Source: Patescibacteria group bacterium
GTDB taxonomy: Bacteria > Patescibacteriota > Patescibacteriia > UM-FILTER-42-10
Length of the DNA stretch: 64,000 nucleotides
NCBI GenBank assembly: GCA_041664365.1
Contig: JBAYKW010000002.1
Span: forward strand, 11,858 to 75,857
Direction of reading: 5' to 3'
Positions 1 to 64,000 of the stretch are shown piece after piece; position 1 is the stretch's first letter, and the number at the start of each line of letters is the position of its first letter. A program made the translations under genes and the position numbers. The notes under the pieces were generated by a model. It had not been told where the DNA came from and did not search any database. It saw only the letters and a list, made by a program, of their open reading frames with translations.

Positions 1-391
1 CAGCTCTCGCCATTCCGGCCTGAGCACGGACTCACCTTCGTCGGAGGCAAAGCAAATGCCGACTTCGCAGTGGCTCGAACAAGTGATCGACAGCGTCGCG
101 CATACTGTCGCGGCGCGAGTGTTCGATCCGCACGACGTCCCGCTTCTGGGACCGATTGCCGTACAGATCCACCATGTGGACGGCAATATCGTCACCGGGA
201 CGATCTGCTCCGCCGAGGAGCACGCGCCGGACATCGAGACGACCGGATCGCGTTTCACGACCGATGCGGAGCTCAAAGAGATCCGCATGGCTGTGTACTT
301 CCTGGTGGTCCAGGGTGAATCCTTCGTCACCAAGACTCGCGATGGGTCCATCCTATGGACCATCGGTCTCCCCGTTCCTTCGGAAGACTAG
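1..391 (+). CDS. C-terminal part of a GC-rich hypothetical protein; the gene begins upstream of the window
   Basis: The frame is open from position 2 with no upstream stop and runs in-frame into the listed 56..391 ORF. The segment is about 60% GC, unlike the backbone, and is followed by a hairpin plus T-run. No recognisable motif. Confidence 0.35.
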   Translation, partial: SSRHSGLSTDSPSSEAKQMPTSQWLEQVIDSVAHTVAARVFDPHDVPLLGPIAVQIHHVDGNIVTGTICSAEEHAPDIETTGSRFTTDAELKEIRMAVYFLVVQGESFVTKTRDGSILWTIGLPVPSED

Positions 392-394
392 TCC

Positions 395-440
395 CCGCCA
401 ATACATCTTTTATGGATTGAGGCGGTTTTTTTATTCCATT
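395..440 (+). terminator. rho-independent terminator
   Basis: CCGCC...GGCGG hairpin followed by TTTTTTTATT. The same GGCGGTTTTTTTATTC tail recurs after the next GC-rich gene at about 1760-1777. Confidence 0.5.
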
Positions 441-470
441 GACATTTATAAATATTCTGGTACAATCGTT
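439..470 (+). promoter_or_regulatory. sigma70-like promoter (TTGACA, 16-17 nt spacer, TACAAT) upstream of the glgC-like gene
   Basis: ccaTTGACAtttataaatattctggTACAATcg read directly. AT-rich, backbone-like signal driving a GC-rich gene. Confidence 0.4.
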
Positions 471-516
471 GCTCGCCCGTTCACACTCACTTTGTCCAAG
501 ACACGGAGGTAATTGT

Positions 517-1755
517 ATGTACCATATGGTCGACACCAGCAAAGTAATCGGCGTTATTCTTGCCGGTGGCGAAGGGGAGCGTGCCTATCCACTCACCCGT
601 TTCCGGGCGAAGCCAGCCATTCCGATCGGAGGTGTGTTCCGTCTCGCAGATGTGATGATCTCGAACTTCCTGAACAGCGACATCCGCAAGCTATACCTGA
701 TTGTGCAGAAGCGTCCGCACTCTCTGATGGTACACCTGGAGGGGTTCGTGGATGCCGTCGCTTCGATGCGTGGGCAGTTCATCCGGTGCCTGCCACCGCC
801 CAAGGAGCAGGATCGCTTCTACGCTTCGGACCTCGATTCCCTGCGTCATCATTCGCTGATCTGGCAGAATGATGATTCTGAGCTCGTGGTTCTGGCGATG
901 GGTGATCAGGTGGCGAAGATTGATCTGCGTCAAGCGATTATCCGTTTCAAAGAGACGGATGCTGATGTGGTGATGGTCTACAACCGGGTGACAACCCAGC
1001 AAGCAGCCGGGCGACTGGGCGTGATCACCTGTGATGGTGATCTGGTGACCGGTATGGAAGAGAAGCCGGAAGTTCCGGAAGAGATTCCGGGTGATCCGGG
1101 TTACTGCCGGGGCAACGTCGCGCTGTACGTCTTCAAGAAAGACCTTTTCACTGCAATGCTGACCAAGGCCAGTCGCCGGTGGGATCCCGCTCTGACGCTG
1201 AGCAAGATCGGTGTTCCCTGGTTGGTCCGGCATGCGCGAGTTGTGACCTACGATCTGGGTGACAACACCATCGCCGGGATGCATCCCTGCGAGCGCGCGA
1301 CGTTCTTCGAAGTCGGAACGCCGGACGACTACTTCGACACGCAGATGGCGTTTTGCATGCGCGAACCGCCGTTCAACTTTTACAACCCCGCGTGGCCGGT
1401 CTGGACCGCCCTGCGCTATCCGCTCATTCCGGCCAAAGTGGACCGGGTGAAGATGGAGGAAGTACTCCTCGCTCCGAACGTCGTCGTTCAGGATAACACG
1501 GAGATCACCCGCTCGGTTGTGAGCTACGGCGCGGTCGTCGGCAGTGGTAGTGTTCTGCAGAATGTCGTCATTCTGGACGGTGCGGTCGTCGGCAAGGGTT
1601 GTCAGATTACCAATACGGTAATCGAGAAGGGGATCGTCGTGCCGGATGGTACAATAATCGGTCCTGATCGGATCCCCGACGACAAGTCCATCGTTCTTTC
1701 ACAGAAGGGGAGGCTGTTCCTTCCCAAGTTCTTCGAGTTCAAGCGGCCGTCATAA
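517..1755 (+). CDS. glgC: glucose-1-phosphate adenylyltransferase-like sugar nucleotidyltransferase (GlgC family) with a C-terminal left-handed beta-helix
   Basis: N-terminus VIGVILAGGEGERAYPLTRFRAKPAIPIGGVFRLADVMISNFLNSDIRKLYLIVQKRPHSL matches the GlgC signature (ILAGGxGxRLxPLTxxRAKPAVPFGGxYRIIDFxLSNCxNSGI...VLTQYxSxSL). The C-terminal hexapeptide-repeat region (VVGSGSVLQNVVILDGAVVGKGCQI) fits the LbH domain. GGAGGT RBS 6 nt before the ATG at 517; the TTG at 439 is less likely as start. About 60% GC. Confidence 0.65.
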   Translation: MYHMVDTSKVIGVILAGGEGERAYPLTRFRAKPAIPIGGVFRLADVMISNFLNSDIRKLYLIVQKRPHSLMVHLEGFVDAVASMRGQFIRCLPPPKEQDRFYASDLDSLRHHSLIWQNDDSELVVLAMGDQVAKIDLRQAIIRFKETDADVVMVYNRVTTQQAAGRLGVITCDGDLVTGMEEKPEVPEEIPGDPGYCRGNVALYVFKKDLFTAMLTKASRRWDPALTLSKIGVPWLVRHARVVTYDLGDNTIAGMHPCERATFFEVGTPDDYFDTQMAFCMREPPFNFYNPAWPVWTALRYPLIPAKVDRVKMEEVLLAPNVVVQDNTEITRSVVSYGAVVGSGSVLQNVVILDGAVVGKGCQITNTVIEKGIVVPDGTIIGPDRIPDDKSIVLSQKGRLFLPKFFEFKRPS

Positions 1756-1851
1756 TCAAATGGCGGTTTTTTTATTCATAAAAAATTTTATTGTGGATAA
1801 CTGTAATATTTATTAATAATTGATGATAAAAAAACTGTAATCTTAGCAGGT

Positions 1852-2336: not shown

Positions 2337-2666
2337 ATGGAAATGAACAAAAAGAACAGCAAGAAAACTGAAGAATTATACCAGGCCATGCTTTCCTTAA
2401 AAAACACCAAGGAAGCCGTGGATTTTTTTCGTGATTTGCTGACGGAAAAAGAAATTATTGAATTAGGCAACCGCTGGCGTGCCGCTCGGATGCTCAATCA
2501 GAATATTCCATACAGCAAGATCATTGAAGATACCGGACTGAGCTCAACTACAATTGCCCGGACTTCAAAATGGTTGAAAAAAAGCAAAGGTGGTTTTAGA
2601 CTTATTCTCCAAAGAATTAATACCCATCGACACAACTCTTCCGTTCCTGAGAAAGGGTTGTTTTGA
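2337..2666 (+). CDS. TrpR-like / YerC-YecD family small DNA-binding protein
   Basis: 109 aa. ELGNRWRAARMLNQNIPYSKIIEDTGLSSTTIARTSKWLK matches the Trp-repressor-like HTH fold of the YerC/YecD family. Backbone GC. Confidence 0.6.
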   Translation: MEMNKKNSKKTEELYQAMLSLKNTKEAVDFFRDLLTEKEIIELGNRWRAARMLNQNIPYSKIIEDTGLSSTTIARTSKWLKKSKGGFRLILQRINTHRHNSSVPEKGLF

Positions 2667-2687
2667 TATAGCAGAAAATATATAAAG

Positions 2688-2724
2688 CCAGCCCCTTCTC
2701 ACGGAGAGAAGGGGCTTTTGATTT
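2688..2724 (+). terminator. rho-independent terminator
   Basis: AGCCCCTTCTC-acgg-AGAGAAGGGGCT followed by TTTTGATTT. Confidence 0.6.
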
Positions 2725-2811
2725 ATCGAAAGCCTTCAGCTTGAGAGACTTTTGATTTCCCAAAAGTTAAAGCTTAAGCTGAATTGTTCATTCACAGTTC
2801 GGAGGTTTGTC

Positions 2812-3888
2812 ATGAAGACGTACCGACCCTGCGCCGGCGCGATTCCCGAGTCGATTGATACCCGCTACCAGGAGGCGCTGCAGACCAAAGGACTTCGGTA
2901 TGGCATTATCGAAGTCACCACCCGTTGTCAGTGTGCCTGTCCGGGGTGCTATATGGTGCGCCGCAATTTCTTGAACAAAAAGGAGATGTCCCTGTCAGAT
3001 GCAATCCGGATTCTGGATTTGTGCCGTGATTACCGCGGCGCGGAACTGGAAACGATGGACCTCTTAGGCGGGGAGCCGCTGTTGTGGCCGCACCTGCAGG
3101 AGTTCATTGAGGAGCTGCTGCGCCGCGGGATTCTGCCTTGGGTTTTCACCAACATGCTGGCGATCACGCCCGAGCTCGCGCGGTGGTTGCATGAGCACAA
3201 GGTGCATGTTACCGGCAAGCTGAACATCGATCCTTCCGATCCCGCGCAGTATCCGCTGCAGGCGGAGATGCTGGGTCGGGGGATGAATGTGGTGCGGCAA
3301 CTGCTTTCCGCGATCCGGATTTTTCAGGCGGCCGGGTATGAGGACCCACTGTTCCGTTTGCAGAACCTGATCCGCAAACAGAACCTGGAATTTGTGCCGG
3401 GTTACTACAGTTGGTGCCTTGCACAGAAGATCGGCACGGATCTGGAACTGATGGGTTCCGGCGAGCCGATCGGTCCTGACTACTGGCGGATTGCCCCTAA
3501 CCCTAAACAGCTGGCGGGTATGATCCGCAAGATCCAGGCGGTCCGCAAGGAATTCGGCCTGGCGGAAGCCGAGGTACTGATGCCGCACGTGTTCGGCTCC
3601 TGTCCTTTCTACGACAAGGGTCTTTACTTCGCGGCGGACGGGCACATCCGCGCCTGCTCCAACTCTACGGTCCAGCTTTCACAAACCGCCGATCCGGATC
3701 CGATCCGGAAAGCCTATGAGTCACCGCTGATCTGTAGCCGTCTAATGCTTTCGCAGAGTGCGGTTGGGGAACCCTGTGGCAGCTGCAGTAAGTGGGACAA
3801 GTGCCGTGGCGGATGCCGGGCGACGGTGGAAGGTACCGGCGATCCTTTCGGCGGGTACCCGCTATGCCCGGTGCCTTTTCTGGACTGA
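2812..3888 (+). CDS. radical SAM enzyme with a C-terminal SPASM domain (peptide- or protein-modifying maturase family)
   Basis: CX3CX2C cluster motif TTRCQCACPGCY near the N-terminus. C-terminal CGSCSKWDKCRGGC is a Cx2Cx5Cx3C SPASM signature, and there are additional upstream Cys. GGAGG RBS 7 nt before the ATG at 2812. About 60% GC. Confidence 0.7.
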   Translation: MKTYRPCAGAIPESIDTRYQEALQTKGLRYGIIEVTTRCQCACPGCYMVRRNFLNKKEMSLSDAIRILDLCRDYRGAELETMDLLGGEPLLWPHLQEFIEELLRRGILPWVFTNMLAITPELARWLHEHKVHVTGKLNIDPSDPAQYPLQAEMLGRGMNVVRQLLSAIRIFQAAGYEDPLFRLQNLIRKQNLEFVPGYYSWCLAQKIGTDLELMGSGEPIGPDYWRIAPNPKQLAGMIRKIQAVRKEFGLAEAEVLMPHVFGSCPFYDKGLYFAADGHIRACSNSTVQLSQTADPDPIRKAYESPLICSRLMLSQSAVGEPCGSCSKWDKCRGGCRATVEGTGDPFGGYPLCPVPFLD

Positions 3889-3959
3889 CCTTGTGACAAA
3901 AGGTTGGGGCGGAGATTAATTTCTTCGCTCCAACCGCTTTATTTTTTAAATTTAAAGAT

Positions 3960-4415
3960 ATGAGAAAAGATATTCTAAAAATTGCCAATATTAAATTCAA
4001 AGAACTGTCAAAAAAGTACGACGGATTTATCAATGTGGTTATTGATGATTGGCGGGGTTTTCGTTTTGTTTTTGACACGGAAGATGTCCGCAAATGTAAA
4101 AACGACTGCCAGAATTGCCCGTTATTTAAATTACTAAAAGATGAAAAATCAGGATTATTCTCCACAGGATTATACCGGGCAACTAAAGAAGATAAATTAC
4201 TTTTCGGTCCGCAAAATTTTTTAAACTGTAAAACCATTATGCAATATCAAACATGCTATTTGAATTTTTTACAGCAATGCCGGTCGGAGGCTGAAATTAA
4301 GCAGGAATTAGCATTGGTTAAATCAATGAAATTAATTTATTCCAAAGGAAATATTAAAAAAACGGAAGATTTGTTTAAAAAAGAAATATTGTCCAAATAT
4401 CTTGATTTTTTATAG
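3960..4415 (+). CDS. hypothetical 151-aa protein carrying a CX3CX2C motif (CKNDCQNC); possible truncated radical-SAM-like remnant
   Basis: Backbone-type, Lys-rich composition. The motif VRKCKNDCQNCPLF is read directly. Too short for a full radical SAM core. Confidence 0.4.
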   Translation: MRKDILKIANIKFKELSKKYDGFINVVIDDWRGFRFVFDTEDVRKCKNDCQNCPLFKLLKDEKSGLFSTGLYRATKEDKLLFGPQNFLNCKTIMQYQTCYLNFLQQCRSEAEIKQELALVKSMKLIYSKGNIKKTEDLFKKEILSKYLDFL

Positions 4416-4477
4416 GGTATTTGTTAAGGTAAATGACCGTTTTAGCTGTTCACTTTAGGCACGAGGAGGTATACATC

Positions 4478-5836
4478 GTGATCATCAAGCGTTACGCACT
4501 GCTTCCGATGCGAGAACTTTGGCTCCGGGAAGAGAGCAAGTTCGAGCACTGGCTGGATGTTGAGCTAGCGGTTCTGCGCGCACGCGAACATTTGGGGATG
4601 GCACCTAAAGGTGCGTATATGAGCGTCCTCAAGCATGCTGCGTTCACTGTGGACAGGATCGCGGAGATCGAGGCGGAAGTGGATCACGACCTGATCGCTT
4701 TCGTCACCAACGTCCGCGAGTCGCTCGAAGCGGCCGGTATCGGCCATTTGTGTTCGGAAATCCATAAGGAGATTACGAGCTACGACGTGGAGGATCCGGC
4801 GCTGATTCTGATGCTCCGCAAGGCGGTCCATCTGGACATCAACGCGCTGAGATCGCTGGAACAGTCCTTACGGAGGAAGGCGCAGGAACACCAGTGGACC
4901 TGGATGATCATGCGCACGCACGGACAGTTCGCCGAACCTTCCACCTTCGGCCATCTTCTGCTGGTGTTTGCCGAAGAAATCCGGCGATGCATCGTCAAGC
5001 TCGAGACTCCGATGAACACTGATCTGTCCGAGGGGAAGATCTCCGGCGCGGTCGGCAGTTTCGCCGGCATTAGGCCAGCCGTGGAGCAGATTGCGCTGGA
5101 AGTGCTGGGTTTGATGCCTGCCAAGGCGGAAACCCAGATCCTACAGCGTGACCGTCACGCTGCGCTACTCTGCACGTTGGCAGTCTGCGGAGGAGTGATC
5201 GAGCAGATCGCAAAGACCTTCTGGGTGATGATGCGCAGCGAGGTGCGCGAACTCCGTGAACCGCGCAAGCCGAAGCAGAAGGGTTCCTCGGCGATGCCGG
5301 GCAAGCGCAATCCGATCCTGACGGAACGGCTCATGGGCATGTCCCGTCTGCTCCGTGCGGATGCAATGTGTGCGCTGGAGAACATCGCCACTTTCGAGGG
5401 ACGGGAAATCTCCCAGTCCAGTGTGGAACGCCACATCTTCGCGCGGTCAACGACGCTCGTTCACTACATGGCCATTAAGCTGGCCGGAATGGTGGACAGT
5501 CTCGAAGTTTTTCCGGAGCAGATGCTTCATAACCTGAAGGAGGAGTCACTCGGAGTGTGGGCCGGACAGCGGGTCCGTCATGCACTGGAGGAGGCGGGGA
5601 CTCACCACGAAGTGGCCTACCGCTACATTCAGGCGTGTTCGTTCCAGGCCGAGGCCGAACGGACGCATCTGCGAGACGTACTGCGCAGAACGTTGATTTG
5701 GGATGTTGTGGAAGACAGCGATGACGATCGTAGCGCCGAGGATCGGCTGGGTCGGAATGGTCTCAGGGCATGCTTCGACCACGAAGCCTATGCCACGGCC
5801 GGCATCGAACACATCTTCTCCCGCCAGACGGCGTAG
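4478..5836 (+). CDS. purB: adenylosuccinate lyase-like enzyme (fumarate-lyase superfamily, PurB-type)
   Basis: N-terminus VIIKRYALLPMRELWLREESKFEHWLDVELAVLRA parallels the PurB N-terminus (MIERYxxPEMxxIW..E.KFxxWL.VE). Fumarate-lyase signature GSSAMPGKRNP. GAGGAGG RBS before the GTG at 4478; the ATG at 4433 is an alternative start. About 60% GC. Confidence 0.65.
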   Translation: MIIKRYALLPMRELWLREESKFEHWLDVELAVLRAREHLGMAPKGAYMSVLKHAAFTVDRIAEIEAEVDHDLIAFVTNVRESLEAAGIGHLCSEIHKEITSYDVEDPALILMLRKAVHLDINALRSLEQSLRRKAQEHQWTWMIMRTHGQFAEPSTFGHLLLVFAEEIRRCIVKLETPMNTDLSEGKISGAVGSFAGIRPAVEQIALEVLGLMPAKAETQILQRDRHAALLCTLAVCGGVIEQIAKTFWVMMRSEVRELREPRKPKQKGSSAMPGKRNPILTERLMGMSRLLRADAMCALENIATFEGREISQSSVERHIFARSTTLVHYMAIKLAGMVDSLEVFPEQMLHNLKEESLGVWAGQRVRHALEEAGTHHEVAYRYIQACSFQAEAERTHLRDVLRRTLIWDVVEDSDDDRSAEDRLGRNGLRACFDHEAYATAGIEHIFSRQTA

Positions 5837-5904
5837 TTTGCACATTTCTTGGGTTCCGGGATCTGATCACAGATCTTAATGGGCCCTTTTTTATTTGGTT
5901 GAGT

Positions 5905-5990
5905 TGAGGGGATAGGGTTTTCCGCCTGAGGCGGATCAGCCTTGGGCTGAAGGGGATAGGGGTTAGGGGATAGGGTTTGGAAACTAGCAA
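5905..5990 (+). repeat. G-rich telomere-like repeat block (GGGGATAGGG / TTAGGGG units) with an internal CCGCC-tga-GGCGG hairpin
   Basis: tgaggggatagggttttccgcctgaggcggatcagccttgggctgaaggggataggggttaggggatagggtttgg read directly. A related block lies at 30273-30317. Confidence 0.8.
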
Positions 5991-6189
5991 TTGGTAATCT
6001 CTAATTCTAAACTCTTTATTCTTAAAATAGGCTAAAGCTTTTTTCTACAACCAAACGTGTAACGTCGCTTATTTTCAGCCGATAAATATAAACGAGTATT
6101 GTATCGTTCCGTGTTTTATTTTATTAGGATTTTTTGGCTAATTATAAGTAGACTTTTTAATCTTCAAGAAAGGTGTATAATATAAATCC

Positions 6190-7707
6190 ATGAAAAAAAT
6201 TGTTTTCATTATTCTAATTTTAAATTTTCTGATTACACCGCTCTTAGCCAGTGCGGCTGATCCCTGGGTGGCGACCAATGACCGGATCGGACTGAATGTC
6301 CACTGGGCATTGGGTGGTTTTGGCAAGGATGATTTATACCAACTGCGTTTGCATCAGAGCAGAACAACCTGGGTGCGAGAGCATTTTTATACTGAAGTGT
6401 TTATGGGGGAAAATCCTGAGGCTTGGTTTGAGCGTTACGACCTAATTCTGGAAAAATATCATCGGGAAGGGATAAAAGTTCTGGGCATGCTGGCATACAA
6501 TGTTAAACACGGGGATTTTTACCAGCCCGACCTTGCAGTGTGGGAAGAATTTGTCCGGACAGTTGTGAACCGCTACAAAGACAGGGTAGATGCGTGGGAA
6601 ATCTGGAATGAACCAGATTCGCCGACTTACCTTACCCCGCATAACCCGGAAACCTACGGACCAATTTTAGAAACTGCTTATCGAACCATCAAAAATATTG
6701 ACACCGAAGAGTTAGTCTTGACCGGCGGTTTGAGTTGGTTCAACTGGTATTTTGCCGAAAGACTTTTTAAAGATTATGGAGACTACTTTGATCGTTTAGC
6801 AGTTCATGGCTATTACTGCGAAAACCGGGATAATTCGAAAATGATGTCCGATCTGGCAGCGCTCAGAAGCGTGGTGGGTAAATACCGGCCGGGTGAGCAG
6901 ATTTGGATTACTGAGCTTGGCTGTTCCACCGGATCAATCGGAATCACTGAACAGGATCAGGTTGAATATTTGGATAATGCCACTAAAGAATTATTAGAAA
7001 CCACTTTTGTTGATAAAATTTTTCTTTATAATATCCGTAACCGGGAAATTGGTGATTTATATGAAGACAGCTTCGGACTTTTAGGTTTGGATATGCAGCC
7101 GAGGCTTGCCTGGTCGTGGTATCGCTCGCTTCCTTTCGGCCCGTATGATCAGAAAAGGATCTCTTTCAAACGGGAACAGAAGCGCGCTACCGAATTAAAA
7201 ACTGTTTTGGAAAAATTTTTTGGTAAAGATAAAATTCCGGTTACACAAGAAAACTGGAACAAGTTGGTTAATGCACATATTTATGGCGGTTATCCGGTGA
7301 TTGCCATAGTCCAGTCATTGCGTTTTGGTGGAAAAACGGTTCATCCGGAAATAAGTTATGACGATTGGAAAAAAAGTAAAACTTATAAAAAATATATCAA
7401 AAAGGATTTAGTGAACGGACGATTTGTCTTTGCATATGGTATGGCACGATTGCCAATCGAAACCGAACAGCAGAAGGCAACAGAATTGAAACAAAAACTT
7501 CAGACTCAATTTGGTTTGGAGAATTTAAGAATTAATGACGCGAACTGGGTAAAACTGTTTAACGCTTATGCTTACGGCGGGTATCCGGTGGAAGCAATCG
7601 CGCGTGCAGTGATTTATGGCGGTAAGACAGTGCACACAACTATTCCATGGAAATTCTGGAAAGAACGGTCTGAGTATTTGGAATATATGCAAAAACCGGT
7701 AAAATAA
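6190..7707 (+). CDS. secreted clan GH-A glycoside hydrolase-like protein with two tandem C-terminal repeats of about 100 aa
   Basis: Signal peptide MKKIVFIILILNFLITPLLASAA. WEIWNEPD (acid/base Glu) and WITELGCS (nucleophile Glu) motifs fit GH5/GH39-type enzymes. Repeated TELK..F.G..KIPVTQENWNKLVNAHIYGGYPV modules at the C-terminus. Confidence 0.55.
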   Translation: MKKIVFIILILNFLITPLLASAADPWVATNDRIGLNVHWALGGFGKDDLYQLRLHQSRTTWVREHFYTEVFMGENPEAWFERYDLILEKYHREGIKVLGMLAYNVKHGDFYQPDLAVWEEFVRTVVNRYKDRVDAWEIWNEPDSPTYLTPHNPETYGPILETAYRTIKNIDTEELVLTGGLSWFNWYFAERLFKDYGDYFDRLAVHGYYCENRDNSKMMSDLAALRSVVGKYRPGEQIWITELGCSTGSIGITEQDQVEYLDNATKELLETTFVDKIFLYNIRNREIGDLYEDSFGLLGLDMQPRLAWSWYRSLPFGPYDQKRISFKREQKRATELKTVLEKFFGKDKIPVTQENWNKLVNAHIYGGYPVIAIVQSLRFGGKTVHPEISYDDWKKSKTYKKYIKKDLVNGRFVFAYGMARLPIETEQQKATELKQKLQTQFGLENLRINDANWVKLFNAYAYGGYPVEAIARAVIYGGKTVHTTIPWKFWKERSEYLEYMQKPVK

Positions 7708-7720
7708 CGCAATAAAAAAA

Positions 7721-7741
7721 GGGGGTTTTTAAACTACCCCC
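7721..7741. terminator. hairpin terminator candidate (GGGGGT...ACCCCC), with a T-run on the minus-strand side
   Basis: aaaaaaagggggtttttaaactaccccc. On the minus strand the hairpin is followed by TTTTTTT, so it terminates the 7734..8060 minus gene and may act bidirectionally. Confidence 0.45.
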
Positions 7742-8060
7742 GTGTGCTTTTCCCGTTCCAGTCACGCTGCCATTCGTGGCGCTTGTCTTCCGGAATGTCA
7801 TCCGGCGGTGTGATGATTTCCAGCTGTTCCACCGGGTGGTGCAGGAAGGTGTCGTGGCCATCCGCAATGATGTGGCAGAGATGCTTGGTGGACCCGGCAC
7901 AGCCGAGGTCAAACAGCCTGCCGTCAAGCAGACGGACCATATGACGCGTCGAACCGCATCCTTCATGATCCCAAACACCGGGATTCCTCGGAACGATCGC
8001 ATTCAGCGGACTTCCGGGTTTGATCAGAATCCCGCAGACTTTGATTTTCAACTGAGACAT
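7734..8060 (-). CDS. GC-rich small hypothetical protein (about 108 aa) with an internal duplicated GCGSTRH / GCAGSTKH motif
   Basis: GGGAGGG RBS before the ATG (MSQLKIKV...). About 60% GC inside an AT-rich context. No family assigned. Confidence 0.45.
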   Translation of the reverse strand: MSQLKIKVCGILIKPGSPLNAIVPRNPGVWDHEGCGSTRHMVRLLDGRLFDLGCAGSTKHLCHIIADGHDTFLHHPVEQLEIITPPDDIPEDKRHEWQRDWNGKSTRG

Positions 8061-8127
8061 AATTTCCCTCCCCTCAGAGCCAAGGTACAAGGTTGCCAGT
8101 CTGTAGTATATTTATAATAGATATTTT

Positions 8128-8166
8128 GTCAACCCCGTTAGAGTCAATAACTCTAACGGGGTCAAT
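8128..8166. promoter_or_regulatory. palindromic intergenic element CCCCGTTAGAG-N7-CTCTAACGGGG (copy 1 of 3), upstream of the ispH promoter
   Basis: ttgtcaaccccgttagagtcaataactctaacggggtcaa. Near-identical copies at 36366-36403 and 49710-49745. A TTGTTT-17-TATAAT promoter follows at about 8178-8206. Confidence 0.6.
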
Positions 8167-17306: not shown

Positions 17307-18530
17307 ATGCCGGATATCACAAAGGTAAAATTAGATTTTCCGATTTTAAGCCAAAAAATGAACGATCAGCGTTTGGTTTATCTTGATAATGCCGCAACAA
17401 CCCAAAAACCAAAAAAAGTTATTGATGCAATAACAGAATTTTATGAAAAGTATAATGCCAACACGCACCGGGGGATTTATCAGCTGAGCGAAAAGGCGAC
17501 TGCTATGTATGAAGATTCCCGGGAAAAGGTGAGAGCATTCATCGGCGCGGAAAAAACTGAAGAAATAATTTTTACGCGTGGAACAACCGAGTCAATCAAT
17601 CTGGTGGCTTATTCCTGGGGTAGGAAAAACATTGAAGCGGAAGACGAAATATTGCTGACGGAAACGGAACATCATTCCAATATTGTACCATGGCAATTGC
17701 TGGCAAAAGAAAAAGGGGCAGTAATAAAATATATTCCGGTAGATAAAAATGGCAAGCTGAATTTGGATAATATTGACCAATATTTCACGAAAAAAACCAA
17801 GCTTCTGGCGCTAATCCATGTTTCCAACGTGCTCGGTGTCGTTAATCCGATCAGGGAAATAATTACAAAGGCGCATACTAGTGGTGTGCCGGTTTTGCTA
17901 GATGGCGCGCAGTCAACTCCGCATATGCCGGTAAATGTCAGGGAGCTCGATTGTGATTTCTTTGCTTTTTCCGGGCACAAAATGCTAGGTCCGACGGGAG
18001 TTGGCGTATTGTATGTGAGAGAAGATATTCTGGAAGAAATGCCCCCGTTCTTATCCGGCGGCAATATGATCCGGGAAGTGACCATGGCGGAAACAAAATT
18101 TGAAGACCTGCCTTTAAGGTTTGAAGCGGGGACAATGCCGATCGCACAGGTGATCGGGCTCGGTGTGGCGATTGATTATCTGAAATCAATCGGTATGGAA
18201 AATATCTGGCAGCATGAACAGGAAATAGTAAACTATGCTTTAGCAAAGATCAGAGCGATCAGCGGAGTCACCGTATATGGGCCGGAAGAAACGGTTGAGC
18301 GTAGCGGTGTGGTATCTTTCGCGATTGACGGTATTCACCCGCATGATTTAGCATCTGTTTTAAACGAAGCCGGCGTAGCGATCCGGGCCGGGCATCATTG
18401 CGCCCAGCCACTACTCAGTGCTTTGGGAACGGAAGCAACAGCGCGCGCCAGTTTTTATATCTATAATGACCAGAAAGATGTGGATCAATTAGTGGATGCG
18501 ATTAATCAAGCGATTAAAATATTAAAATGA
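17307..18530 (+). CDS. sufS: cysteine desulfurase SufS (class V aminotransferase)
   Basis: PLP site FFAFSGHKMLGPTGVGVLY and the catalytic region RAGHHCAQPL. 407 aa. Confidence 0.85.
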   Translation: MPDITKVKLDFPILSQKMNDQRLVYLDNAATTQKPKKVIDAITEFYEKYNANTHRGIYQLSEKATAMYEDSREKVRAFIGAEKTEEIIFTRGTTESINLVAYSWGRKNIEAEDEILLTETEHHSNIVPWQLLAKEKGAVIKYIPVDKNGKLNLDNIDQYFTKKTKLLALIHVSNVLGVVNPIREIITKAHTSGVPVLLDGAQSTPHMPVNVRELDCDFFAFSGHKMLGPTGVGVLYVREDILEEMPPFLSGGNMIREVTMAETKFEDLPLRFEAGTMPIAQVIGLGVAIDYLKSIGMENIWQHEQEIVNYALAKIRAISGVTVYGPEETVERSGVVSFAIDGIHPHDLASVLNEAGVAIRAGHHCAQPLLSALGTEATARASFYIYNDQKDVDQLVDAINQAIKILK

Positions 18531-18901
18531 GCATCTCGGATATTTATCGCGAAGAAATTATCGATCACGCGAAAAATCCGCGTAATTACGGAAAACTTGC
18601 TGATTTTGATTTTGAACACAAGGAGAATAATCCGGTCTGCGGGGATACAATAACGTTTCAGCTGAAATTGGACGGACAAAAAAAGGTAAAAGATATTGCG
18701 TTTGAAGGCAATGGCTGTACAGTTAGTCAGGCCGCAACTTCCCTGCTTTTTGAATCGGTTAAGGGAAAGACGGTTAGAGAAATTAAAAAATTATCACAAG
18801 CTGATGTGCTGGATTTACTGGGCCTCGACAATATTACTCCTTCGCGGGTAAAATGTGCCCTGCTTTCCTTGGAAGCATTAAAGAATGGGATTAAACAATA
18901 A
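18527..18901 (+). CDS. sufU: SufU/IscU-like Fe-S scaffold or sulfur acceptor
   Basis: NPVCGD...GNGCTVSQAATSLL...KCALL give three conserved Cys in NifU-N-like spacing. Start overlaps the sufS stop. Confidence 0.7.
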   Translation: MSISDIYREEIIDHAKNPRNYGKLADFDFEHKENNPVCGDTITFQLKLDGQKKVKDIAFEGNGCTVSQAATSLLFESVKGKTVREIKKLSQADVLDLLGLDNITPSRVKCALLSLEALKNGIKQ

Positions 18902-18962
18902 ACCCTATCATAAGATTGATAGGTTAGAATATAGTAGCAACTCATAAATTAACCAAAAAAAT

Positions 18963-19544: not shown

Positions 19545-19562
19545 ACTTGTAAAGGAAAAAAT

Positions 19563-20282: not shown

Positions 20283-20295
20283 TTGCTGCAATTAA

Positions 20296-20326
20296 AAAAT
20301 CCCGCTCTGAAAGAGCGGGATTTTTG
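20296..20326. terminator. bidirectional rho-independent terminator
   Basis: AAAAAATCCCGCTCT-gaa-AGAGCGGGATTTTT lies between convergent genes. Confidence 0.65.
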
Positions 20327-20336
20327 ATATGTATGA

Positions 20337-20573: not shown

Positions 20574-20590
20574 ATATTTCGGTTACTTAA

Positions 20591-46048: not shown

Positions 46049-46190
46049 TATGTTTGACAGGTTAATGCGTAGATGTTAAGTTTTTTCTGTTATCGGGTAC
46101 CCCGATAGCAGTGAAAGGTTGGTGAATGGTTTTGCTCATTGATTTTCCACCTTGACCGGGAGCTTTACTCCCACGTCGAAAGAGGGGAAC

Positions 46191-46460
46191 ATGCCTCATA
46201 CCAGTCATCCTGCGGACCAGCCGGAACTGTTTCCTGCCGTGTCCGAACCTCAGGAAAAGGAGATCTTCCGGTGGGAGATCAGGGTTCTTGGCGGAGAGAC
46301 GTTTACGGTAGACGGCACTACTCTGCGCGAAGCAATCACCGAAGTTGGTCGCGCAAAAGGGCTGACCGGTCAGCCCGAAACCGTTTACCGCAATGCTCAT
46401 CGGCTGTATCAGCCGGAATTTGTCTCCAAGACCGCAGTGCGGTTTCTGGAACAAAAATAA
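46191..46460 (+). CDS. GC-rich small hypothetical protein (about 89 aa)
   Basis: AGAGGGGAA RBS before the ATG (MPHTSHPADQ...). About 57% GC in an island between dprA and mfd. The opposite-strand ORF 46062..46514 is treated as a shadow. Confidence 0.35.
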   Translation: MPHTSHPADQPELFPAVSEPQEKEIFRWEIRVLGGETFTVDGTTLREAITEVGRAKGLTGQPETVYRNAHRLYQPEFVSKTAVRFLEQK

Positions 46461-46497
46461 CAGGGCCAATAGTGTTTGGACGCCCTGTTTTTCTTTC

Positions 46498-49400
46498 TTA
46501 GAGAATACTAACACACTTCTTAATATCTTTCAACCAGTCTTTTGCAAGTGCATCGAGATCAATCTTAACCGTAAACTCACCAAGTGACCATTGGTCACTG
46601 ACGGTAAATAACTGTTCAATTTGGGTCGGTACTAAACTTTTATTAAATTTAAAGACAATTCTTTTTCTGGCTACTTCTTCCGAGTCAGTTACAAAAGTGG
46701 TATCTATGCTTGTTACACTGCTTTTCTGGGCTAGTACTTTTATTTCTAATAGAGAGATGAGGTTCCTGTATTCTTCCGGTGCTTTTGTCATCAAGGAAAA
46801 CTGATTGGCCAATTTGTGTAATTCTTTTATATCGCGCGTGGCAGATAATTTTTGATACCAATGCAGCCTCTTTTCTTCGCGTGGTTCCATTGATGTGGGG
46901 ATTAATGCGGAAATCGGGAGATCAATACTGACATCTCTGACCGGTTCCGCGATCTTTCCTGTTTTGATTTCTTCTGCTGATTGCTGGATCAGATTCAAAT
47001 ATAAATTCAGGCCGATTGCATTTATTTTTCCGTGTTGTTGTTTTCCTAAAAGATTGCCGGTACCGCGGATTTCCAGGTCACGCAGAGCAAGTTGGAATCC
47101 ACTGCCGAGTTCTTTTGCCTCCATCAGTGCAATCAGTCTTTTTTTTGCGTCCGGGGTAAGTTGTTTACTTTTGTACAAGAAATAGGCAAAGGCCTGCCGG
47201 TCGGCACGGCCGATCCTTCCTCTTAATTGATATAGCTGTGACAAGCCGAAGTTAGTTGCATCCTCCACAATTAATGTATTGGCATTCGGCAGGTCTAACC
47301 CGTTTTCAATTATTGTAGTTGAAACTAAAACATCGATTTCTCCGTTATCAAAACTTTCCATGACATTCATCATCGCATGTTCTTCCATTTGCCCGTGTAC
47401 AATTCCGATTCTGGCTCCGGGCGCCAGTTTTTTAATTTGTTTTGCTTTGGCTTCGATTGTTTCTACTTGATTATGGAGAAAATAAACCTGGCCATTGCGC
47501 TTTAATTCCGATTGGATTGCGTCAATTATCAATTCATCCTGAGCCGGACGGATAATCGTTTCGATCGGCAGTCGCCCAGGGGGTGCGGTTTCAATGGTAC
47601 TAATATCTTTTAATCCCGACAGGGCAAAGTTTAGTGTGCGGGGTATGGGTGTGGCAGTCAGGGTTAAAATGTGAACATTACTTTTCAGTCTTTTTAATTT
47701 TTCTTTATGTTCAACACCGAAACGCTGTTCTTCATCCACAATAATCAACCCAAGATTTTTGAATCGAATATCTTTGGAAAGCAGCCGATGGGTTCCAATA
47801 ACAATATCAATTTGATTATTATTCAGCTGTTCTACGATTTCTTTCTGTTCTTTCGATGTTTTTAGCCGGCTGAGCAAAGCGATGTTGATGCCAAAATGCT
47901 CCAGCCGTTCTTTAAATGTATCATAATGCTGTTGAGTCAGAATGGTAGTGGGGGAAAGTAGCGCGACCTGCATGCCGTTCATCACTGTTTTAAATGCCGC
48001 TCTGATTGCGACTTCCGTTTTGCCAAATCCTACATCTCCGCAAACCAGACGGTCCATGGGAACATTTTTTGCCAGATCACTATTTATTTCATCAATTGAG
48101 CGTTTTTGATCAGCTGTCATTTCAAACTCAAAAGTATTAGCCAGTTTTCTTTCATCCGCAGTTTCTTTTTTTAACGGGATTGTTTCCGATTGTGTTCTTA
48201 GTGTTGATGTTTCTAAAAGTTGTCTTGCTAGTTTTAATGAATCACGTTTTATTCTTAAACACACTTCTTTCCAATTCCCGCTACCAAGCCGGTGTAAGGG
48301 GGGATTCTGCTTGCCGATATATTTATTCAGTTTTTCTGCCTGGTAGATGGGGACGAACAGCTTGTCACCGTGATCATATTCCAGATAGAAAAATTCCCGG
48401 AGCATCCCTTCTATTTCTTTTTTTACCATACCGCGAAACCGAGCGATGCCATGGTCCAGATGAACAACGATATCCCCGGCTTTCAATTCCGCCAAAAATT
48501 TATGATCAATGCTTGATGCCTTGATTTTTTGTTCCCCATTTGAATAACCGAAGATTTCCTGATCAGTAAAAAAAGCGATTCTGTGTAACGGCAGGGTAAA
48601 ACCTTCCAATAATGGAGGCGCGGCATTGATAAAATTAATACTTTTTCTTAACGGACCTAATTTCTTAATTACATTTTCCAGTTCCGGCTTTTTTGAAGTT
48701 GCAATAAATATTGAATATTTATTCCTTGCTAATTCAGTGACTTCTATAACAAATTTTTCCAGATTATGATGGAAGAGAGGGGCGCTTTTAAAATCAATAA
48801 TTATTTCCTTAGCATCTTTCGGAAAGGATTCAAAAACAATTCTGGGGTGGGGGTATAATTTTTTATCGATTCTTTTCCAATCGTATGAAAATTCCTCAAG
48901 CTCAACGGGATCCATATATACGATACTTAGAGAATTATGCATGGAAACGTATTCCAATATTGAATGTTCAAATCGGGAAACAGGAAAATTACCAAGGATT
49001 GATACAGAGTCAACACCCCCTTTACTTTTTTTATCAGCCGGGTCGTAGAAAGAAATATTTTCCACTATTTCTCCTTCAAAATCTATTTTTACCGGCAATG
49101 GATATTGAGGTGAAAAAATATTTAACGTGCCACCTTTTTGACTGAACATCAAAGGTGCAGACGCGAAATTTTCTTTTACATATCCTAATTCAACTAATTT
49201 TTTTGCCAGGTCGGTTGTCGGGATAGTGCTGTCTTTTAAGATATTAATCTGATGATTTTCAAAATCTTTCGGGTCAGCTACAATCTCTTCCAATCCGGAT
49301 ATCGAGCATAAAACAATCACCGGTTTTTGAGTAAGTAGTGACCAAAGTATTTTGGTCTTTTCTGTTTCATTTTGATTGTCCCAAACATAAACCTCGCGCG

Positions 49401-49709: not shown

Positions 49710-49745
49710 ATCCCGTTAGAGGATTTTCTCTAATGGGGTTGACAA
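49710..49745. promoter_or_regulatory. palindromic intergenic element (copy 3), followed by TTGACA
   Basis: tcccgttagaggattttctctaatggggTTGACAaaaaaacaaattatgcTAACAT. The palindrome abuts a possible promoter facing the ncRNA/tRNA region. Confidence 0.5.
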
Positions 49746-49939: not shown

Positions 49940-50200
49940 GCCTAGTGAACAGTAGATGTAGTGCCCAGCGTGCTATTTATAAGTCGGTTAAGAGTATTGT
50001 ATCCTCCTTAACAATACCCTTTGCCATCAGACTTATAGATAGCACCCTGGGTATTATGACATATTGGGTCCGTTGGCATCTCCGATGCCAAACTGAAGAA
50101 GCGATGGGGCTCTCCGCAAGGAAGCCCGTTTCCGAAAGGAATCCCTTGGCGAGCATCGACCAATCAGTTTCTCGCTCACGCGAGACGGGCCCACCTAAGT
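49940..50200 (+). ncRNA. candidate structured RNA (GC-rich, [11 protein letters not shown] leader or ncRNA) upstream of the tRNA cluster; identity unresolved
   Basis: Perfect hairpin TTGGCATC-tccg-GATGCCAA, and an imperfect long hairpin with an apical GNRA loop (CGCAAGGAAGCCCG-TTCC-GAAA-GGAA-TCCCTTGGCG). The overlapping ORF 49945..50247 runs into a tRNA and is not credible as coding. Confidence 0.3.
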
Positions 50201-50206
50201 CTTGTT

Positions 50207-50282
50207 GGGGATGTAGCTCAGTTGATAGAGCATCCTGCTTTCAGTAGGAAGGTCGTAGGTTCAAGTCCTACCATCCCTGCCA
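50207..50282 (+). tRNA. tRNA-Glu (TTC)
   Basis: GGGGATG-TA-GCTC.AGTTGATA.GAGC-A-TCCTG.CTTTCAG.TAGGA-AGGTC-GTAGG.TTCAAGT.CCTAC-CATCCCT-G-CCA. Confidence 0.7.
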
Positions 50283-50292
50283 TTTATTTGGT

Positions 50293-50367
50293 GTCCCGTT
50301 AGCTTAATGGCAGAGCAGCTGACATCTCAATCAGCCGATCGGGGTTCGAGTCCTCGACGGGGCACCA
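50293..50367 (+). tRNA. tRNA-like gene with an 8-nt anticodon loop (CATCTCAA); anticodon unresolved (CTC or TCT possible)
   Basis: GTCCCGT-TA-GCTT.AATGGCA.GAGC-A-GCTGA.CATCTCAA.TCAGC-CGAT-CGGGG.TTCGAGT.CCTCG-ACGGGGC-A-CCA. The cloverleaf is otherwise good. Confidence 0.5.
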
Positions 50368-50385
50368 TTCTGCACATTGTAAGGT

Positions 50386-50460
50386 TGGCGCGTAGCTCAG
50401 CTGGATAGAGCGTCCCACTCTGTGGGAAGGTCTCGGGTTCGATTCCCGACGCGCCGACCA
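50386..50460 (+). tRNA. tRNA-like gene with a shortened anticodon arm (5-bp stem plus 5-nt loop TCCCA.CTCTG.TGGGA); possible pseudo-tRNA or unusual tRNA
   Basis: TGGCGCG-TA-GCTC.AGCTGGATA.GAGC-G-TCCCACTCTGTGGGA-AGGTC-TCGGG.TTCGATT.CCCGA-CGCGCCG-A-CCA. It is 75 nt, 2 nt short in the anticodon arm. Confidence 0.45.
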
Positions 50461-50476
50461 TTTGGTCTCACTGGTT

Positions 50477-50547
50477 GCCAGCGTAGTTCAGCTTGAAGAA
50501 CACTTGATCTGTTTTCAAGAGTTCGTCAAACTCCTCCGCTGGCACCA
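50477..50547 (+). other. tRNA-like fragment or pseudogene (71 nt, ends in CCA; no regular T-arm)
   Basis: GCCAGCG-TA-GTTC.AGCTTGAA.GAAC-A-CTTGA.TCTGTTT.TCAAG-...-CGCTGGC-A-CCA. The acceptor, D-arm and anticodon arm are tRNA-like, but the region between anticodon arm and acceptor is too short. Confidence 0.35.
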
Positions 50548-50554
50548 GAAAATC

Positions 50555-50627
50555 GCCCACGTGGCTCAAATGGTAGAGCATCACACCAGGAGTGTGAAGA
50601 TTACTAGTTCGAATCTAGTCGTGGGCT
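50555..50627 (+). tRNA. tRNA gene of standard length (no CCA encoded) with a non-canonical anticodon loop CCAGGAG (no U33); anticodon unresolved
   Basis: GCCCACG-TG-GCTC.AAATGGTA.GAGC-A-TCACA.CCAGGAG.TGTGA-AGATT-ACTAG.TTCGAAT.CTAGT-CGTGGGC-T, followed by a T-run. Confidence 0.5.
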
Positions 50628-50632
50628 CTTTT

Positions 50633-54030: not shown

Positions 54031-54325
54031 TTGACGGGTTAGAAATACAAAATTATTGATTCATATCGCTAATATTATATAATATTTTCAACAAAAAATC
54101 TACTACAATAATTAATACGTAATCGGCCTGATTAAGATTTCATCCGAGGGGCTTGAAATATTACTTTCTTTGTGTTACAATAAGGCTACTTCGTGTGCTA
54201 TCTCCTTTATTTACAGGGGTTCGTAGCTCTCGCCCGCTTACGTCTGTGCGCAAGCGATGGCGACGGGCGGCTGGTTATATGCCTTTCGGCAGGCAGTGAG
54301 CACTATCCACACATCTGTCCACCGC

Positions 54326-56850: not shown

Positions 56851-56975
56851 AAAAATTAAATATCAGATAAAACAACCCTTCTACCTCTAGAAGGGTTGTT
56901 TATTATATTTGACGTTATTAAACAAGAGTGTTATATTAAAAAAGAACTAACTATTAAATATACACCTTAAGGGAG

Positions 56976-57236
56976 GTGAATAATTTGGTTGAAGTAAAAA
57001 AGAAAGACAGTGAAACATCCGAAAGCCTGATCAGACGATTTTCTAAGAAAGTCCAGCAGAGTGGCGTTTTAATTAGGGCTAAAAAAAGCCGTTTTCATGA
57101 GCCGGAAAAGAACAAAAGGAAAACAAAAGATGACGCTTTAAGGCGCAAAGATATTAAGTCTAAAAAGGAATATCTGAGGAAAATCGGCAAACTGGAAGAG
57201 GTTGATCGATCGAAAAAAAGAGGCGGCAGAAGATAA
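56976..57236 (+). CDS. rpsU: 30S ribosomal protein S21-like
   Basis: MNNLVEVKKKDSETSESLIRRFSKKVQQSGVLIRAKKSRFHEPEKNKRK parallels bS21 ([26 protein letters not shown]...RRREFYEKPT). Confidence 0.6.
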   Translation: MNNLVEVKKKDSETSESLIRRFSKKVQQSGVLIRAKKSRFHEPEKNKRKTKDDALRRKDIKSKKEYLRKIGKLEEVDRSKKRGGRR

Positions 57237-63613: not shown

Positions 63614-63636
63614 TAATTTATCATTAGGAATATAAT

Positions 63637-64000
63637 ATGCCAGAACCAACAACACCCCTATCAAACTTTCCAATGGGCGATCCAGCCGAAGATATTTTTG
63701 AAGAAACGGATGTCACGACGGAAACTCCTTCTACATTTCCGTCGTCAGCGCCTGTGGGTGATGGAGCAATGCCTCCTGCTGCCCCGCGTCCGACTGCTAA
63801 TCCGACGATGGTTCCTCCGCCAAATCCGCTGGCAGAAGTGCCGGGAGCGGAAGTACCTAAGCCAAAAGGAGGGAAGAAAATGCTGTTTCTTTTTGTACTG
63901 CTGCTTCTGGTTGTTTTTGGCGCTGGCGCTGCATATTATTTTTTGGTGCTCAATAAAGATAACGCAAATACCAACGTCAACAACAATACAAATGTTCCGG
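63637..64000 (+). CDS. start of a further secreted or membrane protein (Pro-rich N-terminus, then a TM); continues beyond the window
   Basis: ATG at 63637. MPEPTTPLSNFPMGDPAEDIFEETDV...KKMLFLFVLLLLVVFGAGAAYYFLVL. No stop within the window. Confidence 0.4.
   Translation, partial: MPEPTTPLSNFPMGDPAEDIFEETDVTTETPSTFPSSAPVGDGAMPPAAPRPTANPTMVPPPNPLAEVPGAEVPKPKGGKKMLFLFVLLLLVVFGAGAAYYFLVLNKDNANTNVNNNTNVP

Follow-up and report, generated by a model that had tools for sequence, protein, structure and literature searches.

We here describe two compositional classes of protein genes in a stretch of 64,000 nucleotides, called the window in the following, of contig JBAYKW010000002.1 from a Patescibacteria group bacterium. 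The host is a groundwater organism with a small genome, Parcubacteria-like and a member of the Candidate Phyla Radiation (CPR); its chromosome has a GC content of about 42%, the window a mean of 0.439. The smaller of the two classes is rich in G and C. We consider it rather probable that this class is long-resident, that its composition is maintained gene by gene and that it is tied to translation depending on Shine-Dalgarno (SD) sequences, a link that we in part infer. We regard it as an old, maintained feature and not as recently imported DNA, and it hints at two separate modes of translation start in one cell.

The GC-rich class comprises nine of the 53 protein genes, about one in six, and 8,856 bp, which is 13.8% of the bases. 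Its members are purA, purB, a GlgC-like transferase, a radical-SAM/SPASM enzyme, an SPFH-like protein with its membrane partner, and three small genes whose proteins had no family match. Their GC is 0.53-0.60 and their GC at third codon positions (GC3) 0.62-0.76. The remaining genes, about 44, here called the backbone, have a GC of 0.35-0.48, with a single outlier at 0.30, and a GC3 of 0.30-0.50, typically about 0.42. Per-gene GC and GC3 part the two classes cleanly, and the edges are sharp. Between 150 and 50 nt upstream of the GC-rich genes GC is 0.20-0.41, while the first 60 nt of the coding sequence (CDS) already reach 0.45-0.62; the rise takes place no more than about 50 nt from the start codon, the fall no more than about 45 nt past the stop. 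Three adjacent genes within 3 kb have GC values of 0.59, 0.30 and 0.59. G- and C-ending codons are both more frequent in GC-rich genes, including AAG over AAA.

The initial annotation had described a mosaic base composition and had listed the GC-rich segments; sliding-window and per-gene GC reproduce every one of them. Several blocks, however, are composite rather than single units. Segment 1-1755 holds two genes (56-391 and 517-1755) with an AT-rich promoter gap between them; in segment 4433-5990, purB (4478-5836) is followed by a G-rich tail of repeats; and segment 31854-35910 combines the SPFH-like gene, the membrane-protein gene and three tRNA genes with structured trailers. Segment 46100-46480 contains an open reading frame (ORF) of 89 aa (46191-46460, forward strand).

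Sharp switches in composition are a classic warning sign of a chimeric assembly or of contamination by reads of a GC-rich organism. Fortunately, independent assemblies are available. A 47 kb contig of another assembly is 100% identical over 18518-31867, which covers both purA junctions, and a third assembly is identical over 36271-41816, the parAB region (L001 and L002; L-numbers denote loci from related contigs or assemblies, of which 98 were fetched in all). The other junctions are common to five related lineages from different sites, groundwater and marine biofilm, and conserved promoters adjoin the GC-rich genes. The chimera is refuted at the purA junctions, and for the window as a whole its probability is negligible; here the initial annotation, which had argued for a sound assembly, was right.

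Residence and descent of the GC-rich genes

A search among 5.8 billion proteins places the relatives of four GC-rich genes. For purB, the matches are 82, 76, 72, 71 and 70% identical, followed by more than 100 at 50-57%, and all that carry a name are from Patescibacteria or Parcubacteria. The radical-SAM protein has 181 significant relatives, with 59-88% identity among the matches listed; the named ones come from Buchanan-, Gracili-, Doudna-, Gribaldo-, Peri- and Magasanikbacteria. An exhaustive HMMER scan with the GlgC-like protein gave no match above 46% beyond the cluster to which it belongs; among the top clusters, those with a name are Parcubacteria, Giovannonibacteria and Veblenbacteria. 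For purA there are a few relatives at 52-78% and then at most 39% to everything else. Those above 50% with fetched contigs all lie in mosaic, low-GC contigs, and one retains the order purA-nrdR-reductase. By homology, these four genes belong to CPR families. Neither this search nor the fetched contigs yielded a high-GC donor for any of them. The sole non-CPR locus to surface, an Ilumatobacteraceae contig, was rejected as a donor; it is merely 39% identical to purB.

Relatives carry GC-rich genes at matching positions and with a matching contrast in GC (L003/L016, L095, L005/L017 and L007/L013). The contrast holds despite a shift in the backbone, whose GC3 is 0.25-0.30 in L005/L007 vs 0.44 in the window. 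It also remains where four-fold degenerate sites between two pairs of lineages are near saturation (identity 0.22-0.41 vs about 0.25 by chance) and across lineages in which backbone GC at such sites (GC4) has moved from about 0.2 to about 0.5. The identity matrices of purA and purB group the lineages as the backbone does, ((window, L003/L016), (L005/L017, L007/L013)), which, with four lineages, is a weak test. The promoter, leader motif, SD and terminator of purA are conserved along with the gene. Judged by synteny and by this grouping, the GC-rich genes are long-resident.

The radical-SAM gene provides the most distant comparison. In the window it stands between a TrpR-like and a Cys-rich protein gene (2337-4415), and this triad recurs in a Buchananbacteria genome (L097, 9553-11603) and in a contig with a Doudnabacteria-named protein (L098, 9552-11634). 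In both distant loci the TrpR gene is AT-rich and lacks an SD, the radical-SAM gene has a GC of 0.48-0.50 and an SD of about -9.4 kcal/mol, and the third gene, whose product is 44-51% identical to that of the window, has a GC of 0.26-0.28 and no SD. Since both the neighbourhood and the sawtooth of GC are conserved across CPR classes, the radical-SAM gene does not appear to be an insertion. The Cys-rich gene adjoins the radical-SAM gene wherever the latter is found; its small product (about 150-175 aa) is encoded by extremely AT-rich DNA in every case. In CPR-type metagenome loci with sufficient flank, purB is often among the top few genes of its neighbourhood in GC3 and usually SD-led. Its GC3 excess over the flanks is greatest in the clade of the window (+0.33 to +0.36); GC-rich loci with a distant purB (35-41% identical) differ little from their flanks.

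The proposal of at least eight insertions from high-GC donors is not borne out: no donor was found, the genes are syntenic and group like the backbone, the sawtooth of the triad is conserved, and the synonymous sites have a high-GC equilibrium of their own (see below). Of course, the units resemble genomic islands or phage "morons", which are single genes with their own promoter, terminator and deviant base composition. As in these, the deviation in GC is gene-sized, several units have a promoter-like site and a terminator, they are set between conserved operons, and the presence of some of them varies among relatives. In contrast to these, the nearest relatives lie within the same phylum, there is neither a prophage context nor amelioration, and the gene-specific contrast extends to distant CPR classes. 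No integrase, flanking repeats or tRNA insertion flank the nine GC-rich genes; the only mobility-like feature of the window is an AT-rich GIY-YIG ORF between duplicated tRNA-Leu ends (35886-36300). An origin from a phage or a defence island was considered and rejected, PADLOC and PHROGs having yielded just weak, generic family matches.

A continuous supply of foreign sequence could nevertheless mimic residence. If an unsampled GC-rich reservoir (a host, plasmid or phage) repeatedly refreshed the genes by gene-confined homologous recombination, blocks bounded by coding sequences and an apparent high-GC equilibrium would result. The competence-related gene dprA lies in the window, and an apparent recombination breakpoint is seen at about 5900-6200: L095 is the closer relative for genes on its left, L016 for the backbone on its right (e.g., ferredoxin with a four-fold identity of 0.93 to L016 vs 0.32 to L095). 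This incongruence is, however, regional and not class-specific, as the 108-aa gene sm108 goes with its backbone neighbours. Moreover, homologues above 57% (purB) or 52% (purA) with fetched contigs all sit in mosaic, low-GC contigs, promoters and leaders are inherited along with the genes, and PHROGs and PADLOC gave no phage-specific or defence-system signal. Recurrent replacement is therefore highly unlikely.

Forces acting on synonymous sites

For a test of decay, synonymous differences in a star-like trio (the window, L095 and L016) were polarised by majority, i.e., by parsimony. At four-fold sites, changes from G or C to A or T (S>W) amount to 0.096 per S site per branch in GC-rich genes vs 0.182 in the backbone (p = 1.3e-7); the opposite changes (W>S) amount to 0.231 vs 0.159 (p = 0.011). 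The implied equilibrium at these sites (GC4*) is 0.71 (0.65-0.76) for GC-rich genes, which currently stand at 0.73, and 0.47 (0.43-0.50) for the backbone, which stands at 0.48. In GC-rich genes S>W and W>S were observed at 71:50, where backbone rates predict 134:34. Decay at backbone rates is thus rejected (p = 1.7e-7 at four-fold sites, 9e-12 at all synonymous sites). The test of proportions is independent of branch length, and it is conservative because errors of parsimony should inflate S>W in GC-rich sequence. Per gene, the equilibrium GC (GC*) is 0.61-0.79 for four GC-rich genes and 0.29-0.49 for eleven backbone genes; TrpR, amid the GC-rich genes of the left block, scores as backbone. 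In the three closest lineages the synonymous sites of the GC-rich genes are at a separate high-GC equilibrium. As these genes are syntenic, group with the backbone, belong to CPR families, share the conserved triad and have an equilibrium of their own, their high GC appears to be maintained gene by gene.

These data also bear on an ancient horizontal transfer with unfinished amelioration, in which GC-rich, SD-using donors, possibly GC-richer CPR bacteria, would have contributed genes to the ancestor of the clade. Such an origin could explain why all three codon positions of the GC-rich genes resemble a genome of about 60% GC and why positions 1 and 2 have a little more GC than their implied equilibrium. 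The slots of these genes are variable, and their proteins evolve faster than their neighbours (39-78% identity where these show 74-99%). Hypermutation is not the cause: four-fold identity is no lower than in the backbone, and just amino-acid divergence is higher. Potential sources are conceivable, too. Transfer into Patescibacteria comes mostly from other Patescibacteria (PMC12455944), and GC-richer CPR loci with purB exist, e.g., L025 with flanks at 0.58. Ancient transfer is nonetheless unlikely, since the closest trio shows no net synonymous decay, the contrast has outlasted both the saturation of four-fold sites and the shift of backbone GC4, the radical-SAM sawtooth is common to distant CPR classes, and the donor was not found.

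What, then, keeps the GC high? W>S is raised 1.45-fold and S>W lowered to 0.53-fold in GC-rich genes, and by our own calculation both fit one fixation bias of about 1 scaled unit. The composition is thus kept, gene by gene, by a weak bias toward fixing G or C. This bias could in principle stem from GC-biased gene conversion at recombination hot spots, which lifts GC locally; GC variation linked to this process is known from bacteria. That a single bias parameter accounts for both shifts would agree with it, as would the evidence for recombination among lineages and the faster protein evolution of the genes affected. The blocks, however, track the limits of coding sequences, with TrpR (0.40) and the 151-aa gene (0.30) interleaved; the long 5' untranslated region of the SPFH-like gene is not GC-rich; and matching genes are GC-rich in distant classes. 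Moreover, relative to the backbone, the ratio of W>S to S>W is higher by a factor of about 2.6 at synonymous sites, compared with a factor of only about 1.1 at positions 1 and 2. Being non-regional and mainly synonymous, with positions 1 and 2 drifting down, the pattern disfavours gene conversion and local mutation bias alike, and gene conversion is distinctly unlikely. The bimodal GC3 of grasses and warm-blooded vertebrates (PMC2895627, PMC5460877) and bacterial GC variation linked to biased gene conversion likewise comprise two GC3 classes held by a fixation bias; here, in contrast, the switch concerns single genes in a genome of about 1 Mb and is tied to a ribosome-binding signal, not to a region.

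Classical translational selection is the textbook alternative. SD strength and codon bias increase with expression in many bacteria, and highly expressed genes with optimal G- or C-ending codons and strong SDs would show the bias where it is greatest here, at synonymous sites. Yet the genes for superoxide dismutase, AhpC, the SUF proteins and bS21, the one ribosomal protein of this genome covered here, are AT-rich in the window and, rpsU apart, SD-less. In L097, a distant relative, RpS2 and EF-Ts have a GC3 of 0.39-0.41 and no SD. G- and C-ending codons rise together, and accessory enzymes and small proteins without assigned function are among the members of the class. High expression is thus a very improbable cause.

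Translation initiation in the two gene classes

The ribosome-binding sites differ between the classes. A canonical SD is found 5-8 nt before the start in all nine GC-rich genes, with SD:anti-SD duplex energies of -8.2 to -13.1 kcal/mol; the GGAGG-type sites ascribed to the GC-rich segments are thus real for each of their protein genes. For the backbone (39 curated genes) the median is +0.2 kcal/mol, and only two genes reach -8 kcal/mol or below, the reductase with -10.2 and one other with -8.6. Backbone leaders (-20 to -1) consist of A to 46% and of G to 9%. The predicted fold around the start (-30 to +30) is -4.0 kcal/mol in the backbone vs -11.5 in GC-rich genes (p = 7e-5). Pooled over nine loci (gene starts curated in the window, genes called independently in the eight others), a strong SD precedes 24 of 32 GC3-high genes vs 18 of 157 others (Fisher p = 1e-12; Spearman -0.44, p = 1.5e-10).

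Promoters and terminators had been claimed for each GC-rich unit. This stands for several units, not for all. A consensus scan finds promoter-like sites with 11 of 12 matches directly 5' of 517-1755 and of 7734-8060 (reverse strand) and one with 9 of 12 matches 5' of purA. Hairpins with T-tails lie 3' of GC-rich genes. Where such signals were seen, the gene has a sigma-70-like promoter and an intrinsic terminator to itself. The similar tail noted for several segments was correctly seen in its T-rich part: the window has nine T6+ATT tails, five of which terminate GC-rich genes, and GGCGGTTTTTTTATTC is present exactly twice, at 421 and 1762.

Since the SD is the sole covariate found, we infer that selection acts on the mRNA through the mode of initiation; the selective agent behind the high GC would accordingly be linked to translation. 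Default ribosomes may initiate without an SD on open, A-rich leaders. The GC-rich class would need SD:anti-SD pairing, either because structured mRNA demands it or because such mRNA is shielded from default initiation.

A precedent is known from Bacteroidia. There the anti-SD is held by bS21, bS18 and bS6 and mRNAs lack SDs; rpsU alone has a strong SD, which is preferred by ribosomes without bS21 (PMC7797042, PMC9976891, PMC13000453). The likeness to this SD-blind translation with autoregulation of rpsU (see also PMC13000457) is twofold: most genes of the window are SD-less with A-rich, weakly structured leaders, and its rpsU, which encodes bS21, carries an extended SD (GGGAGGTGA). No further copy of rpsU turned up in the 98 fetched loci. 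The extended SD suggests, by analogy, that access to the anti-SD may be regulated as in Bacteroidia. The two systems also differ. In F. johnsoniae, rpsU reportedly has the near-sole strong SD, while here at least ten more genes within 64 kb have one, nine of them GC-rich. For Patescibacteria the anti-SD, its sequestration and the pocket residues are presumed.

Should access to the anti-SD indeed be under such control, an SD-dependent regulon consisting of the GC-rich genes is conceivable. One may go further and imagine a translational regulon of GC-rich, SD-led genes in this and many other Patescibacteria, read by ribosomes with an exposed anti-SD, e.g., those lacking bS21. High synonymous GC would keep these mRNAs folded and invisible to default SD-independent initiation, and base composition would act as part of an expression switch conserved across CPR classes. 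This extension is possible, yet we regard it as doubtful.

A number of observations argue against a long-resident class maintained through its mode of initiation. The link of SD and GC is not one-to-one: the reductase and rpsU are SD-led without high GC, and eight of the 32 GC3-high genes lack a strong SD. The anti-SD of the clade is presumed, as no 16S rRNA was found in the window or the 98 fetched loci, and about half of the Parcubacteria 16S sequences are devoid of the motif (PMC9297842). The loss of the anti-SD reported there concerns the same phylum-level group and explains SD-less backbone genes; a GC-rich, SD-led minority is not described in that work. From the conservation of SDs across lineages we argue that the present clade keeps a working anti-SD. 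The equilibrium test covers four genes with 359 four-fold sites, relies on parsimony and uses one trio; polarisation with L017/L013 yields S>W:W>S of 84:38, close to the expectation for noise, the outgroups being saturated. Positions 1 and 2 of GC-rich genes are losing GC slightly (GC* 0.46 vs a current 0.52), which fits a GC-richer past and possibly an old acquisition of some genes. Finally, there is gene flux in variable slots, besides the one recombination breakpoint. All lineages examined contain purA and purB. One lineage, L016, lacks the radical-SAM pair and has another GC-rich, SD-led radical-SAM-like gene in its place; one other, L013, has neither the GlgC-like gene nor sm108. L005 holds extra GC-rich genes (AIRS, 3HCDH, ECH). 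Past acquisition of individual genes is therefore possible.

Further features of the window and implications

Pfam annotation identifies the window as a segment of a bacterial chromosome. It carries genes for replication, repair and partition (parAB, topA, dprA, mfd) and for translation (pth, der, hisS, rpsU), furthermore lepB, the SUF operon, a class II ribonucleotide reductase with nrdR, a copper ATPase cluster and a gene for a 1946-aa protein with a T4SS-pilin domain. The GC-rich genes and the features discussed with them are compiled in Table 1.

Table 1. Positions, composition and signals of GC-rich genes and associated features in the window
Feature	Span	Strand	CDS and composition	Signals and remarks
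111-aa gene	56-391	+	GC 0.60, GC3 0.76	SD GGAGG 43-47; terminator tail GGCGGTTTTTTTATTC at 421
GlgC-like nucleotidyltransferase, self-contained unit	439-1775	+	CDS 517-1755, GC 0.57, GC3 0.70	promoter-like TTGACA-16-TACAAT 439-466; SD GGAGG 505; terminator 1745-1775
TrpR-like gene	2337-2666	+	GC 0.40	no SD; first of the conserved CPR triad
Radical-SAM/SPASM gene	2801-3945	+	CDS 2812-3888, GC 0.59, GC3 0.72	SD GGAGG 2801; terminator 3902-3945; middle of the triad
Cys-rich 151-aa gene	3960-4415	+	GC 0.30	no SD; third of the triad
purB (adenylosuccinate lyase)	4465-5895	+	CDS 4478-5836, GTG start, GC 0.59, GC3 0.73	SD GGAGG 4465; hairpin and T-tail near 5887
sm108 (108-aa gene), self-contained unit	7690-8132	-	CDS 8060-7734, GC 0.56	promoter-like TTGACA-16-TATACT 8132-8105; SD GGGGAGGG near 8067; terminator and T-tail 7720
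purA-like gene	24445-25925	+	CDS 24518-25867, GC 0.59, GC3 0.71	promoter-like TTGACT-17-TAAGAT 24445-24473; leader GATAGACCGTTTTAG; SD GGGGAGGG; terminator tail 25917
Class II ribonucleotide reductase	26775-29714	+	GC 0.44, backbone-like	sole curated backbone gene with a clear AGGAGG
SPFH-like and membrane-protein genes, bicistronic	31842-34845	+	SPFH CDS 31854-33647, GC 0.53; membrane CDS 33665-34768, GC 0.56	SD AGGAG (SPFH-like); SD GGAGG 33654 (membrane); hairpin and T-run past the stop
tRNA-Met, tRNA-Met, tRNA-Leu(CAA)	34885-35905	-		each with a structured trailer of about 115 nt 3'; non-protein part of segment 31854-35910
Small 89-aa gene	46182-46500	+	CDS 46191-46460	SD GAGGGG; terminator hairpin; between dprA and mfd (both -)
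Structured leader of tRNA cluster	49940-50206	+	GC-rich, not protein-coding
GC-rich leader of tRNA-Val	54188-54325	+	GC-rich	fold no better than shuffled, z = -0.13
rpsU (bS21)	56971-57236	+	TTG start 56985, CDS GC 0.38	extended SD GGGAGGTGA 56971-56979; 5-nt spacer

Some of these genes deserve comment. The orthologues of the 111-aa gene in L095 (75% aa identity), L013 and L016 are also GC-rich; sm108 has orthologues in L016, L095 and L017. While purB scores above the TIGR00928 cut-off, purA is divergent, its models scoring 259-313 bits, below their cut-offs. A PurZ-type phage enzyme was considered and dismissed, the NCBIfam PurZ match being weak (68 bits vs a cut-off of 300). The leader of the SPFH-like gene measures about 150 nt; in L003 the SPFH-like and membrane proteins are merely 39-45% identical to those of the window, yet their genes are GC-rich too. 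A GC hairpin 3' of the purB terminator is flanked on both sides by G-rich direct repeats, variants of GGGGATAGGG (5895-5985, +). The leaders of purA and purB share GACCGTTTTAG just past the -10 box (24474-24490 and 4448-4460); it is kept in the purA leaders of L003 and L005, has diverged in L007 and could be a common operator. Palindromes, CCCGTTAGAG ... CTCTAACGGGG, abut -35-like TTGAC boxes at three promoters (8128-8166, 36367-36405 and 49711-49740).

The GC-rich tRNA flanks, which had been counted among the insertions, are indeed GC-rich; they are, however, RNA features, mostly structured, and a phenomenon separate from the GC-rich protein genes. The three trailers at 34885-35818 adopt the same two-hairpin fold with different sequences (z = -4.7 to -7.4). 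In the leader of the tRNA cluster, a long, near-perfect hairpin of about 100 nt (49958-50057, z = -9.9) exposes AUCCUCCUUA in its apical loop and is followed by a multibranch fold (50060-50206, z = -4.3). The tRNA leaders and trailers have no Rfam match. Structured RNA as an explanation for all GC-rich blocks was rejected: Rfam finds just tRNAs and one adenosylcobalamin (AdoCbl) riboswitch, and the main blocks are clearly protein-coding.

The tRNA genes themselves show peculiarities. In the cluster 50207-50628 (+), the tRNA at 50293-50367 apparently has an 8-nt anticodon loop, for which ARAGORN calls a 4-base anticodon; by our own reading of the loops, position 33 is a C in tRNA-Arg(UCU) as well as in the tRNA called Pro(AGG). 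The cluster also includes a tRNA-like remnant without a call (50461-50550) and a weak, sub-threshold YrlA-like match. Two copies of the 5' end of tRNA-Leu(CAA) are present (35886-35912 and 36271-36300), and the GIY-YIG endonuclease ORF between them (35914-36168, -) lies beside sequence resembling a decayed tRNA. The break of one public assembly falls exactly at 36271.

Past a promoter-like site (1852-1880) lies a conserved element of about 340 nt (1852-2225, +). Three lineages with a divergence of about 50% at neutral sites share it at 88% identity. Its complementary ends (AAGAGCUG ... CAGCUCUU) could close it. The 5' half is conserved; a variable C/U-rich tract (1985-2165) contains four anti-SD-like CCUCC motifs. 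A protein gene in this tract was dismissed, as ORFs end in differing frames in relatives. Neither L013 nor L017 has the element, and Rfam gives no match to it. A non-coding RNA is the probable interpretation, and such an RNA could base-pair with the GGAGG sites that precede SD-led genes.

Two observations concern the backbone. The gene topA (41951-44870, -) consists of two adjacent ORFs, 42669-44870 and 41951-42667, the second starting immediately past the stop codon of the first. Such an arrangement may reflect a genuinely split gene, a frameshift or an error in sequencing. The AdoCbl riboswitch (30324-30487, +) precedes DUF4430 and DUF6580 genes in the neighbourhood of the B12-dependent reductase and a corrinoid adenosyltransferase, and together they probably form a module for uptake and use of B12.

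In kind, the phenomenon is related to intragenomic codon-usage classes and to SD-blind translation with a specialised SD-led subset. Neither a GC-rich, SD-led gene class nor bimodal GC3 was found to be described for Patescibacteria in full-text searches of the literature. Deviant GC is routinely taken as the mark of foreign DNA and is the basis of island finders. In this genome the rule fails: native, long-resident genes are kept, gene by gene, at an equilibrium composition of their own, and the division into two classes matches the presence or absence of a ribosome-binding site. In such genomes, about 15% of the sequence will be mislabelled when transfer is called, or bins are filtered, by composition. 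If the link to translation is true, the idea of SD-blind ribosomes plus a specialised subpopulation, developed for Bacteroidia, would reach a second, very large radiation and would widen from one gene to a whole class of genes. It would also make a tiny genome available as a testable example of selection on mRNA composition prevailing over mutation bias.

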